A stretch of DNA of 64,000 nt, taken from the NCBI RefSeq assembly GCF_003019035.1, contig NZ_CP027447.1. One strand, given 5' to 3'. The DNA is from Escherichia coli. GTDB lineage: Bacteria; Pseudomonadota; Gammaproteobacteria; Enterobacterales; Enterobacteriaceae. How positions within the stretch are numbered: position 1 is the first letter of the stretch; each line of letters starts with the position of its first letter. The position numbers and the translations under genes were made by a program. Below are positions 1 to 8,295 of the stretch, in pieces. Under the pieces are notes generated by a model. That model had not been told where the DNA came from. It made no database searches and saw nothing but the letters and a program-made list of their open reading frames with translations.

Positions 1-350
1 ATGAAAAAATAGACTCACTCTCCACCAGACTGGAGAAGAAATCCCGTATTCAGCCGCCTGAGCCTGATGAGGAGGTTAAGAAGCTGCGGGCGGAAGTGAC
101 AGCATTAGCGGTTGAGGCGGAATCTGCCATCGCCGTTCGATTGTCCAGCGCTTTTGAGACGCTGTGTGCATATTGTGCTGAAAACATGATTGATACCCCC
201 AGAGACTTCATGGCAGGCCTGGTCTGTCAACTGGAAAGCACAGCGCGTAGCCTGCGCTCCACATTTGACCTGCCGGACGAGCCAACAGGCAATGCAGCGC
301 CTTCATGGCTGACTGAGCCGACGCCACAGATTAACGGGCTGGAGGCATAA
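1..350 (+). CDS. hypothetical phage early protein, 5' end outside window
   Basis: Open frame runs from position 3 with no upstream stop to TAA at 348-350; it ends 3 nt before the transposase start. Does not resemble Mu Ner. Confidence 0.45.
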   Translation, partial: EKIDSLSTRLEKKSRIQPPEPDEEVKKLRAEVTALAVEAESAIAVRLSSAFETLCAYCAENMIDTPRDFMAGLVCQLESTARSLRSTFDLPDEPTGNAAPSWLTEPTPQINGLEA

Positions 351-353
351 CCA

Positions 354-2135
354 ATGAATGCTGCCCTGACTGAACGACTGGTTTATGTCGCCCGCGCGGC
401 ACGTGACGCGGGGCATGGTAAACGCGGTGCAATATACGACGCTGCCTGTGCTGAACTTGGCATGTCCCGCGCCACTCTGCTGCGCAGGCTGAAGGAGGTC
501 TCTGTGACTGATAAACGCAAAAAACGCGCCGATGCCGGGCGCAGCGCTCTGACCCGCGACGAAGCCGCGCTGATATCTGCCACACTGCGTGAGGCCACCC
601 GCAAGAACGGTAAGCGTCTCTATTCCATCGCAGATGCAGTGGAAACCCTGCGGGCTAACGGCTTTATCTCCGCAGGCAGAACAGATGAAACCACCGGTGA
701 GTTTTTCCCGTTGTCCGAAGATGCCATCAGTCGTGCCCTGCGTAACTATGGCCTGCACCCGGAACAACTGGATGCCCCTGCACCGCATACCGAAGTGGCC
801 AGTCTGCATCCCAATCATGTCTGGCAGATTGACGCCTCACTCTGCACGCTTTACTACCTGAGCAATGGACATAAAGGGCTGCAGGTGATGGACAGCGCGA
901 AGTTCTACAAGAACAAGCCCGCTAACCTTGCCCGTATCGCCAGTGACCGCGTGTGGAGTTACGAGATTACCGACCATGCCAGCGGCTGGATTTACGTTGA
1001 GTATGTGACGGGCGCGGAATCCGGTGAGAACCTGTGTTCTGTGCTTATCAACGCCATGCAGGAGCGCGGTGGCGCAGACGTGCTGCACGGCGTGCCGAAA
1101 ATACTCTATCTCGACCCTGGCTCGGCAAACACCGCGGGTATGACGAAAAACATGTGCCGCTCACTGGGCATCGACCTGATAGCGCACAGGCCGCATAACG
1201 CCCGCGCCACCGGACAGGTGGAAAAGGCGCGTGACATTATCGAACGCAAGCTGGAGCCGGGTCTGAAGTTCCGGCCGGTTCACAGTCTGGAAGAACTCAA
1301 CGCGCTGGCCGCGAAATGGCGCAGCCACTTTAACGCCACGGCTGTTCACAGCCGCCACGGTAAAACCCGCACGGATATCTGGCTGAAGATTACTGCTGAG
1401 CAGCTGAAAAAAGCGCCTTCCGTTGAAGTATGCCGTGAACTGGCTGTGGCGACACCAGAACTCCGCAAAGTCACGCCAAAACTTCGTGTCTCGTTCCGGG
1501 GCACTGAATTTGACGTATCAACGGTACCGGGCGTACTGGTTGGTGAAAAACTGATGATTACCCGTAACCCATGGCGCAGCGATGTGGCACAGGTGGTTCT
1601 GACCGGTGAGGACGGCCACGAGACGTTCTTCCTGGTCGAAGAGGTCAGAAAGAACGAGTTTGGCTTTGCTGAAGGCGCGGCGGTATTTGGCGAAAGTTAC
1701 AAAGCCCTGCCGGAAACCCCGGCACAGATGGCGGCAAAAGAAACCGAAGCGCTGGTTACCGGTACAGACAACGCCGCAGATGCAGCCGCCGCACGCAAGG
1801 CGAAGGCGCTGCCGTTCGGCGGGCGGCTTGACCCGTATAAACATATCGACGACACCACACTTCCGGCCTATATGCCGAAGCGTGGTCAGGCCTCTGACGT
1901 ACGCGGGCCGCGCACTGAACAACGTCCCATGACTCATGTGGAGGCCGCGAAAGCCCTGCGCGATAAGTTCAGCGCCGACGGCCTTACCTGGACGCCGGAA
2001 CATTACCGCCAGTTAACGGCACAGTACCCGGACGGCGTACCGGAAGCTGCACTGGATGAAGTCATGGCCACGCTGACCACGCCGGCCCGCAGCAGCGTTA
2101 TCAGCAGCGTTATCAGCATTGTTAACGGCAACTGA
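354..2135 (+). CDS. Mu-like DDE transposase (A-like, integrase-core family)
   Basis: 593 aa ORF, ATG at 354 with GGAGG upstream; integrase-core-like segment (HVWQIDAS...); sits directly upstream of a B-like ATPase as in Mu A-B. Confidence 0.8.
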   Translation: MNAALTERLVYVARAARDAGHGKRGAIYDAACAELGMSRATLLRRLKEVSVTDKRKKRADAGRSALTRDEAALISATLREATRKNGKRLYSIADAVETLRANGFISAGRTDETTGEFFPLSEDAISRALRNYGLHPEQLDAPAPHTEVASLHPNHVWQIDASLCTLYYLSNGHKGLQVMDSAKFYKNKPANLARIASDRVWSYEITDHASGWIYVEYVTGAESGENLCSVLINAMQERGGADVLHGVPKILYLDPGSANTAGMTKNMCRSLGIDLIAHRPHNARATGQVEKARDIIERKLEPGLKFRPVHSLEELNALAAKWRSHFNATAVHSRHGKTRTDIWLKITAEQLKKAPSVEVCRELAVATPELRKVTPKLRVSFRGTEFDVSTVPGVLVGEKLMITRNPWRSDVAQVVLTGEDGHETFFLVEEVRKNEFGFAEGAAVFGESYKALPETPAQMAAKETEALVTGTDNAADAAAARKAKALPFGGRLDPYKHIDDTTLPAYMPKRGQASDVRGPRTEQRPMTHVEAAKALRDKFSADGLTWTPEHYRQLTAQYPDGVPEAALDEVMATLTTPARSSVISSVISIVNGN

Positions 2136-2145
2136 GGAGGAAAAC

Positions 2146-3312
2146 ATGCTGGTACTGAAGCAGCAACTGAAAGAGGCCCGTATCCCACAGGCGGTGGTGG
2201 CGAGAGCTGTCGATGTTTCTGAGGCCACGCTGGCCCAGATTGTGAATCATAACGCGTGGCCCCGCACCCGCCCCGGAGAAGTGCGCCGGCGTCTTGCGTC
2301 CTGGCTGGAAAGTCAGGGGATTGATACAACGAAGAGTTTTGATGCTGTACAGGGCGCGGCCACGCCCCGTACAGCGGGTACCACAGATAAAACGAGCCTC
2401 AGTGAGGAAGAGAATATGTTACTCAAAAAACAGGTGTTATTTCCAGCAACCAAAAAAGCGTTTGGTCTTTTCCGTGACCCGTTCGCCGACGAAGCCATGC
2501 AGGGTTCTGATGATGTGTTCACCACCCCGGACATTCGCTACGTGCGTGAGGCGCTGTACCAGACAGCCCGTCATGGTGGGTTTATGGCCGTCATCGGTGA
2601 GTCCGGTGCGGGTAAATCCACGCTGCGCCGCGACCTGACTGAACGTATCAACCGCGAGAATGCGCCGGTAATTGTTATCGAGCCATACATCATCGCTATG
2701 GAAGACAACGATGTGAAAGGGAAAACCCTGAAGGCAGCAGCTATTGCCGAAGCCATTATCAGTACCATCGCACCACTGGAAAGCATCAGACGCAGTCAGG
2801 ACGCCCGCTTTCGCCAGTTGCATCGCGTCCTGAAAGACAGCAGCCAGGCGGGGTTCAGCCACGTTCTGGTGATTGAGGAGGCTCACAGTCTGCCCATTCC
2901 GACACTGAAACACCTCAAACGCTTTTTTGAGCTGGAGTCCGGTTTCAAAAAACTGCTGTCCATCGTGCTGATTGGTCAGCCGGAACTGGCGACAAAACTG
3001 TCTGAACGCAATATGGAAGTCCGTGAAGTCGTTCAGCGCTGTGAGGTGGTCGAACTTCTGCCTCTGGACAATAACCTTGAAGAGTTTCTGACGTTCAAAC
3101 TGCAACGGGCCGGTAAACAACTGACGGACATTATGGACGCCAGTGCAGTGGATGCCATACGTGCCCGCCTGAGCAATCCGGGAAGTCATCGTAAAAATAT
3201 GGTCAGCCTGCTGTATCCGCTGGCCGTCAGTAACCTGGTGATAGCCGCCATGAATCTGGCCGCTGAAATCGGGGTTCCACAGGTCAACGCTGACGTTGTC
3301 AAAGGGGTTTAA
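2146..3312 (+). CDS. Mu B-like AAA+ transposition ATPase
   Basis: ATG 2146 preceded by GAGGAGG; Walker A GESGAGKST, Walker B-like VLVIEEAHSL; N-terminal HTH-like segment; overlaps A stop. Track ORF starts at TTG 2119, but the ATG at 2146 has the better RBS. Confidence 0.8.
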   Translation: MLVLKQQLKEARIPQAVVARAVDVSEATLAQIVNHNAWPRTRPGEVRRRLASWLESQGIDTTKSFDAVQGAATPRTAGTTDKTSLSEEENMLLKKQVLFPATKKAFGLFRDPFADEAMQGSDDVFTTPDIRYVREALYQTARHGGFMAVIGESGAGKSTLRRDLTERINRENAPVIVIEPYIIAMEDNDVKGKTLKAAAIAEAIISTIAPLESIRRSQDARFRQLHRVLKDSSQAGFSHVLVIEEAHSLPIPTLKHLKRFFELESGFKKLLSIVLIGQPELATKLSERNMEVREVVQRCEVVELLPLDNNLEEFLTFKLQRAGKQLTDIMDASAVDAIRARLSNPGSHRKNMVSLLYPLAVSNLVIAAMNLAAEIGVPQVNADVVKGV

Positions 3313-6351: not shown

Positions 6352-6793
6352 ACAACGTCTTATCCAGCTCATTCATATTGCCCGTAATGAACTGGGTATG
6401 GATGAAGACACCTACCGCCAGATGTTACAGGGGCTGACCGGTAAAGCCTCAACCAAAGGAATGGATACCACACAACTAAACTGCGTGCTGGAATCCATGA
6501 AAAGGAAAGGCTTTCGCGTTAAGCCTGCCGGAAAAGCCAGCTCCGGTTTACCGCTGGATAACCATCCGCAGTCCAGGAAAATCCGTGCGCTATGGCTTGA
6601 AATGGCTGCTGCCGGCATTGTTCGTGACCGTTCAGAAAATGCATTAGCGCGGTGGATCAAGCGGGAAACGGGCATCAGCGCCCTGCGCTGGCTCAATACT
6701 GAACAGGCAAGCAGTGTTATTGAGAAACTGAAGAAGTGGCAGCACAGAGCTGCGGGAGTAAAACATGAGCGACCTGAATCAGTTTCGAAGTAA
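6341..6793 (+). CDS. gemA: GemA-like protein (Mu gp16 family)
   Basis: ATG 6341 with AAAGGAG RBS; N-terminus MMTKQRLIQLIHIARNELGMDEDTYRQ matches the GemA family; 3' end overlaps mor by 29 nt. Confidence 0.8.
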   Translation: MMTKQRLIQLIHIARNELGMDEDTYRQMLQGLTGKASTKGMDTTQLNCVLESMKRKGFRVKPAGKASSGLPLDNHPQSRKIRALWLEMAAAGIVRDRSENALARWIKRETGISALRWLNTEQASSVIEKLKKWQHRAAGVKHERPESVSK

Positions 6794-7163
6794 AGGGCCG
6801 GAACTCCTGGTGGAGCTGGCACAGCATACCTCTGAGACCGTTCGCGAGATTATTGATATTGAGCCCGCAATTGCCGACCAGATTGGTCAGGCCGTCGCGA
6901 ACCGAATGATGCAGGTCTGGGGCGGGCAAAACGTTTATTTCCCGATGGGCATGGTATGGAAGGTCAGTCAGCGCGACCGGGAAATCTTCAGGGAGTTTAA
7001 CGGACGCAACCACCACGAACTGGCCCGCAAGTTTGGTGTTTCGCTTCAGTGGGTCTACAGCGTGGTTAAGCGGGTCAGAAAAGAAGAACTGGATCGGATG
7101 CAGGGCAGGTTGTTTGATGAAGATCTGCCAGAGGAGACGAAAGACGTTAACAAATCCAGATAA
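6765..7163 (+). CDS. mor: Mor-like middle-operon transcriptional activator
   Basis: 132 aa; GGQNVYFP motif and C-terminal HTH resemble Mu Mor; GGGAG RBS. Confidence 0.82.
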   Translation: MSDLNQFRSKGPELLVELAQHTSETVREIIDIEPAIADQIGQAVANRMMQVWGGQNVYFPMGMVWKVSQRDREIFREFNGRNHHELARKFGVSLQWVYSVVKRVRKEELDRMQGRLFDEDLPEETKDVNKSR

Positions 7164-7910: not shown

Positions 7911-8295
7911 TGTTTATTTTTTCCCTGGGGCAGGGGCTGCCGGCATAGTGGTTTTATTGGCAGAGGAAGACGATTCTCCTTTTCTACCGGAATCGCGCTC
8001 GAACGTCACGATGTGCTTGCTTTTGGGCTTTTCTGAGTAATCCAGGCTATCATGCTTATTGTTTTGAGTAGTCATTGGAATCATCCTTTTTGTTGCGGGT
8101 CATGTTTCAGCAAACTCGATTCTAAGTTGCCAGGAAGGATGATTTCAATGCCCGACTTATCTATCGTATAGCGGAAAAGAATTTCAGTTCTGTTCACCAG
8201 AACCCATGTTAACCCACTCCAATTCGTTATTTATCTCACGGATCCCCCTTCATTTATCTCATGTCTGATCAAATCAATAATCATCATGAATGTTT

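Follow-up and report, generated by a model that had tools for sequence, protein, structure and literature searches.

A DUF3102-family early gene beside the transposase gene of a B3/BcepMu-type prophage in Escherichia coli

The first 350 nt of a 64,000-nt stretch of Escherichia coli DNA (contig NZ_CP027447.1; the whole stretch is referred to below as the window) hold a truncated open reading frame (ORF) that ends immediately upstream of a transposase gene. This ORF is the C-terminal third of a known DUF3102-family early gene of B3/BcepMu-type prophages. Sequence comparison together with a predicted structure indicates that the encoded protein has two modules, an N-terminal DUF3102 domain (aa ~46-165) and a C-terminal long-helix module (aa 164-276) followed by a flexible tail. 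By the same sequence comparisons, the part that lies in the window is the constant C-terminal module, which tracks the type of the neighboring transposase. The gene itself is an ordinary, already known member of a described phage group, and the literature searched assigns no function to its family. The two-module pattern is a new detail of this analysis and represents a modest lead rather than a discovery.

Identity of the truncated gene

In frame 3 of the plus strand, 115 sense codons run without interruption from the window edge to a TAA at 348-350, nt 1-2 being the last two bases of the AAT codon that precedes these 115 complete codons. Within this edge-truncated frame, the program-made ORF list, from which run-off ORFs are omitted, contains only an internal GTG-started ORF (96-350). 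The 115 residues are 100% identical to residues 190-304 of WP_000533821.1 from E. coli M9682-C1 (locus L001), the 304-aa product of a 915-nt gene annotated as 'DUF3102 domain-containing protein', and this match places the first 189 of the 304 codons upstream of the window. A sequence-only reading of the window had reported a partial ORF of at least 116 aa before the transposase gene, which is correct, the complete gene having 304 codons. It had considered the identity of the ORF unknown; on this point it is superseded, since the gene belongs to a catalogued family (PF11300, phrog_1748), though one without an assigned function. The two features that define the 3' end of the gene are:

1-350, plus strand: 3' 38% of the DUF3102-family early gene, codons 190-304 and stop (100% amino acid identity to L001:5436-6350)
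341-345, plus strand: GGAGG, the ribosome-binding site for the transposase, within the final codons of the ORF and 8 nt before the ATG (read from the sequence)

The transposase ATG, at 354, follows the DUF3102 stop codon.

The full-length orthologue matches PF11300 (DUF3102) over aa 65-173 with 28.5 bits (cutoff 24.4), a match shared by 113 of 126 family representatives, and belongs to phrog_1748 ('unknown function') with an E value of 8.4e-141 over aa 1-302 of 302 profile positions. The window fragment alone (aa 190-304) matches positions 187-300 of the phrog_1748 profile (E 7.6e-40); in the Pfam scan it gave no match and falls outside the DUF3102 domain. Scans of the protein against NCBIfam and PADLOC gave no meaningful match. 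An exhaustive profile-free search of 1.84 billion cluster representatives yielded 1650 relatives at E<=1e-3, mostly of ~300 aa, and tblastn against 50,697 phage records matched 68 of them, with identities of 51% to B3 ORF13, 52% to phiE255 gp41 and 40% to BcepMu gp10. A search of the family profile against PDB sequences revealed no significant match to a protein of solved structure; MafG was considered as a structural relative and rejected, as its E value of 0.09 looks like chance similarity of 'MSVRELxxxLR'. No functional study of DUF3102 was found in the searchable literature (DUF3102; BcepMu plus two-hybrid). Some relatives (430-545 aa) are extended at the N-terminus, and no Pfam domain was found in these extensions. 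In P0205, P0235 and P0248 (526-537 aa) and in L004:2105-3718, the extension comprises ~250 aa rich in paired cysteines (repeated C-x2-C / C-x-H).

Genetic context was compared across 88 loci, consisting of 80 viral-contig loci (52-100% identity; 20-row query alignment) together with phage and genome loci. In every locus with enough flank, the order is a winged-helix-turn-helix (wHTH) gene, the DUF3102 gene, the transposase gene (tnpA) and the gene for the transposition ATPase B (tnpB); in L001 the gene upstream of DUF3102 encodes a 102-aa wHTH protein of the IclR type. The same order is kept in metagenomic representatives at 36-45% identity, in Pseudomonas phage Bise and in the 'Microcystis phage' Mae-JY22. 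The spacer between the wHTH stop and the DUF3102 start measures 9-19 nt in 78 of 79 loci, and in 63 of 78 loci <=17 nt separate the DUF3102 stop from the tnpA start, the remaining 15 carrying one small ORF between the two genes. An example is the 105-aa ORF of PhiKM (L008:4921-5238), for which no Pfam, PHROG-level or PADLOC annotation was found. DNA identity between PhiKM and the window rises to 98% right at the start of tnpA. Exceptions to the order are 243-aa DUF3102-only proteins on Enterobacter/Citrobacter phage-plasmids, which are encoded upstream of a Mor-family gene and tail genes with no transposase nearby. These proteins (L089:4899-5630 and L090:4899-5630; IncFIB/IncFIC) share 43% identity with aa 66-163 of the E. 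coli protein, and the phage-plasmids also encode an intein-containing RecA.

Sequence and context identify the window gene as the positional orthologue of B3 ORF13 (YP_164049), BcepMu gp10 (YP_024683) and phiE255 gp41. All three proteins are ~305-317 aa long, contain a DUF3102 domain plus the C-terminal module, and are 40-52% identical to the E. coli protein over 86-97% of its length; all three genes lie between an IclR-type wHTH gene and the genes for an rve transposase and an AAA+ B protein. The phages differ in host genus, and in BcepMu a small additional ORF, gp11, separates the wHTH gene from gp10; a function has been assigned to none of the three proteins. In the genome paper of the Burkholderia phage KS10, gp15 is described as 'similar to BcepMu gp10' and lies directly before the transposase (PMC2628397); it also follows a BcepMu-gp16-like helix-turn-helix (HTH) gene. 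Fc02 gp13 and the JBD25/JBD67-type homologues of Pseudomonas phages likewise precede a homologous transposase gene.

The DUF3102 gene is real and under purifying selection, and the family product is made. Ratios of nonsynonymous to synonymous substitution (dN/dS, Nei-Gojobori) are 0.09-0.18 when the whole gene is compared with eight variants and 0.04 when the window part is compared with Klebsiella phage KP12, nearly all differences in the latter comparison being synonymous. A DUF3102 protein, QGA32870, was detected by proteomics in an extended-spectrum beta-lactamase E. coli strain (PMC9927464); an HTH protein bears the adjacent accession number and Gam lies five accession numbers away, which fits the PhiKM-type gene order. 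Induction of the B3-like phage Fc02 is followed within 10 min by transcription of the early pE operon, which includes the homologous position; most of this operon's ORFs lack an assigned function, according to the authors of that study (PMC9936078). That the frame is a chance ORF, or a pseudogene remnant without a product, is extremely improbable: nothing beyond its truncation by the window edge speaks for this, and it is opposed by dN/dS values of 0.04-0.18, by the 1650 family representatives, by the conservation of length and synteny and by the proteomic detection.

It is hardly more credible that the protein is a divergent regulator of the Ner/Cro or repressor type. Mu Ner is a 75-aa HTH_35/SfsB-type protein. 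What the 304-aa protein shares with it is only the position directly 5' of the transposase gene in the early operon, the one point in favor of such a regulator; the two differ in length and have no sequence or domain similarity. HTH_35 is absent from the protein in Pfam scans, and BLASTP against a Mu Ner sequence, which itself matches the SfsB family at E 3e-27, gave a best E value of 1.0. Nor was there a Pfam match to HTH_3 or HTH_31, as would befit a cI/c-type repressor, and the gene lies on the early-operon strand, the divergent repressor being a separate protein of 153 aa (HTH_31/HTH_3, cI/P22-c2-type in L001). Furthermore, the Ner and c positions, which lie further upstream and beyond the window edge, are already filled, the latter by this repressor and the former by a 62-aa HTH protein of the gp16 family (TIGR04111, 'BcepMu gp16 family', 94 bits against a cutoff of 34 in NCBIfam). 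This protein, encoded by the first early gene after the divergent repressor in L001, is the analogue of Ner/Cro by position; it has no BLASTP similarity to Mu Ner, and the Fc02 authors term its homologue 'ner-like' (PMC9936078). The earlier judgment that the ORF does not resemble Ner is therefore upheld, and the profile search of the full-length protein that had been proposed as a check identified neither a standard Ner nor a repressor homolog. In L004, a distant relative, a true Ner-type HTH_35 gene directly precedes the N-terminally extended DUF3102 gene, and a divergent HTH_3 repressor is present as well.

A constant C-terminal module and an exchanged N-terminal cassette

An AlphaFold2 (AF2) model of the DUF3102 protein, built from 126 diverse relatives, is all-helical with a mean predicted local distance difference test score (pLDDT) of 89. 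The predicted N-terminal helices span residues 20-40, 48-79, 82-92 and 97-111, and four further short helices reach to residue 161; the model then has three long ones, at 164-203, 210-249 and 256-276, with a lower-confidence tail at 277-304. Helices 82-92 and 97-111, joined by a conserved 'LG' turn, look like a helix-turn-helix, and no significant match to any known DNA-binding family was obtained with Pfam across the 126 members or with the family profile against PDB sequences. ParB/SopB-like, SAP and bZIP-Maf proteins were considered as possible relatives of this kind. In overall architecture, with a small HTH-like helical head ahead of long helices, the protein may resemble the plasmid KfrA-type proteins, which combine an N-terminal HTH with a long coiled-coil tail; none of the 126 members scanned matched KfrA_N in Pfam, and the genetic context differs from that of KfrA. 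The parts of the model that fall in the window, with helix coordinates mapped from residue numbers, are:

3-44, plus strand: end of the predicted long helix 164-203, a coiled-coil-like linker between N-domain and C-module (AF2, pLDDT 84-98)
63-263, plus strand: the two long predicted C-module helices, 210-249 (nt 63-182) and 256-276 (nt 201-263) (AF2, pLDDT 95-98)
300-308, plus strand: P-S-W, an instance of the family P-x-W motif in the low-confidence C-terminal tail; candidate docking peptide

The segment at 63-263 is also common to the Fc02-type proteins that have no DUF3102 domain, and comparison with these proteins separates the two modules. The 324-aa Fc02-type protein has only aa 167-281 in common with the E. 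coli protein (39% identity) and with B3 ORF13 (48%), its N-terminal ~180 aa showing no BLASTP relation and no DUF3102 match; the transposases are homologous, with 57% identity. KS10 gp15 presents the reverse arrangement. It matches the family profile over aa 44-224 only, covering the N-domain and the first long helix (hhalign 97.8%, E 1e-12), while its C-terminal region is not homologous, and the transposase that accompanies it is of the MuA/D3112 type (Mu-transpos_C, 67.6 bits), as opposed to the Tn552/IS481-like rve enzyme encoded here, and only 22% identical to the window transposase in the DDE core.

The same division was observed in pairwise distances among 67 loci. Distances over aa 166-280 correlate with those of tnpA and tnpB at r 0.91-0.92, close to the values for the wHTH gene (r 0.8-0.9), whereas the DUF3102 core (aa 46-165) correlates with all other segments at r of only 0.35-0.52. 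Prophages whose tnpA genes are >=98% identical can have cores as low as 75% identical, and in such tnpA-matched pairs dS reaches 1.3-2.3 in the core compared with ~0.07 in the flanks. A sliding DNA comparison of L001 with L018 illustrates the boundary: identity is 98-100% from codon ~150 through tnpA and 47-69% over codons 75-135. The exchanged cassette within the N-terminal domain corresponds to aa 80-135. Clustering of this segment defined at least 10 alleles, each common to lineages with transposases that show 59-99% identity to the L001 enzyme. The most variable stretch consists of the putative recognition helix and the loop that follows it (e.g. APQVARRMMQASMKF / AYRTSVRMMQASTKY / SKRTAQVMMQASLKY). 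Selection on aa 46-165 is purifying rather than positive, with dN/dS of 0.06-0.17. For the four lineage-crossing alleles, no DNA 11-mer linked to the cassette allele was found within ±4.5 kb, the phage ends lying outside the flanks compared. This result speaks against a binding site close by that is specific to one allele, and also against a tie between the cassette and any given repressor allele. One 19-mer that appeared linked to alleles was discarded, being a motif within the coding sequence of a Dam methylase cargo gene.

The P-x-W motif occurs in the last 70 aa of 52 of the 126 relatives, whereas its frequency elsewhere in these sequences would predict 0.012 per 70 aa; tryptophan accounts for only 0.5% of residues overall in the family. 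An AF2 model of the fusion DUF3102-(GGGGS)6-TnpA, computed from 18 paired and 48 unpaired rows to probe a contact with TnpA, was of poor quality, with a pLDDT of 66 and a predicted template-modeling score of 0.36. In this model folding of the transposase core was poor, and the tail gained no order relative to the monomer.

Proposed role of the DUF3102 protein

The DUF3102 gene is co-transcribed with the transposition genes in one tightly packed operon, following the wHTH gene and preceding tnpA and tnpB. The explanation that we favor, with moderate confidence, is that the protein serves the early transposition module of B3/BcepMu-type prophages as an adaptor or accessory factor, a role that we infer from synteny, from the co-variation of segments and from the domain swaps described above. 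The constant C-terminal module would be matched to the transposase, the B ATPase or both. Variable specificity, whether for DNA or for a partner from the host or the phage, would come from the exchangeable N-terminal cassette. On this view, the protein may recruit or regulate the transposition machinery during lytic replication. A more specific form of this proposal, put forward tentatively, is that the protein is a dedicated third transpososome component, whose C-module and P-x-W tail would dock on the transposase or the B ATPase while the swapped N-cassette sets the DNA site or host factor to which they are coupled. Few early genes that are conserved universally in this phage group still lack a function, and this is one of them; the domain-level pattern offers a concrete, testable hypothesis for the transposition of transposable phages.

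Two other roles were weighed against an accessory function in transposition. The protein might be an early DNA-binding regulator of transcription, perhaps acting with the adjacent wHTH protein or in an early-to-middle switch, in which case its place before tnpA would reflect operon packing only. We regard this as unlikely, because no allele-linked DNA words were present within ±4.5 kb, no known DNA-binding family was matched significantly, and the C-module behaves as a partner of the transposase, changing with the transposase family in KS10 and staying with the transposase in Fc02 when the N-domain is replaced. Somewhat less probable still is a host-takeover protein, or one that counters or evades defense, whose cassette diversifies in response to a variable host factor or to sensing by host immunity. 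The exchange of at least 10 cassette alleles across lineages, with flanks that stay 98-100% identical, would fit such a role, as would early expression and the replacement of the whole N-terminal part in Fc02-type phages. On the other hand, the cassette is under purifying selection, and the gene is universal and fixed beside tnpA, not placed in the variable cargo regions; neither the protein nor the neighboring cargo ORFs matched PADLOC, a library that holds defense but not anti-defense proteins.

The prophage and its right end

Of 5426 complete E. coli genomes, 638 have a megablast match to window positions 1-2200, with 98.3% identity in the chromosomes; Klebsiella phage KP12 clone 2 and Escherichia phage Phi06_2974 B match at 89% identity. 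The remaining prophage features located in the window are:

354-2135, plus strand: transposase A, 593 aa, rve DDE core at aa 152-282, phrog_310
2146-3312, plus strand: transposition ATPase B, AAA_22 ExeA-type, phrog_296 (start placed by homology to RefSeq annotation)
6765-7163, plus strand: Mor-family activator, last conserved gene of the early operon (Pfam Mor, 148 bits)
8232-8271, plus strand: prophage right end with repeated TTTATCTCA motifs and terminal ...TGATCA, then host DNA (homology to other genomes stops at ~8271-8278)

In L001, the genes downstream of DUF3102 are arranged in the order rve transposase, AAA_22/ExeA-type B, Gam, several small ORFs, a gp16-family protein and Mor, after which the prophage ends; in the window the early operon reads toward the prophage end at ~8271. 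The lysis and late genes of L001 lie beyond the repressor on the opposite strand, and the layout is therefore the divergent one of B3 and BcepMu and not that of Mu. The suggestion of the sequence-only reading that the regulatory region is organized unlike that of Mu holds, the order being repressor, 62-aa gp16-family HTH gene, 102-aa wHTH gene, DUF3102 gene and transposase gene. Mu is nevertheless the wrong yardstick, because descriptions of this layout in B3 and BcepMu date back two decades.

The boundary at ~8271 reads ...CATTTATCTCATGTCTGATCA on the prophage side (also written ...TTATTTATCTCACGGATCCCCCTTCATTTATCTCATGTCTGATCA) and AATCAAT on the host side, the prophage terminating in CA. The repeated TTTATCTCA motifs at this end are probably transposase-binding sites. 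Other E. coli genomes have the same prophage end beside different genes (kefF, inaA, gspL), and in L001 the identical end motif adjoins a truncated gspL. Beyond the junction, window positions 8272-64000 were matched in 5425 of 5426 E. coli genomes and thus represent core chromosome.

Several features distinguish the window prophage from its relatives. Its transposase has 593 aa, compared with 589 in most relatives, because of a 12-nt tandem duplication at ~2080-2130 (...ARSSVISSVISIVNGN instead of ...ARSSVISIVNGN). From nt 7120, inside the Mor C-terminus, the prophage diverges from the M9682-C1 copy. Between Mor and the prophage end there is an extra predicted membrane protein of 210 or 236 aa (7200/7278-7910, plus strand) and a small ORF (7914-8084, minus strand), neither of which had a Pfam or PADLOC match; the extra gene at the phage end is probably a cargo ('moron') gene. 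A variable cargo region lies between the lysis genes and the repressor (L001:2195-4367, L002:3018-3788, L008:597-2874). In M9682-C1 it encodes a small P-loop 'ABC transporter ATPase' and two hypothetical proteins, and in KP12 and PhiKM the cargo includes Dam-type DNA adenine methylases.
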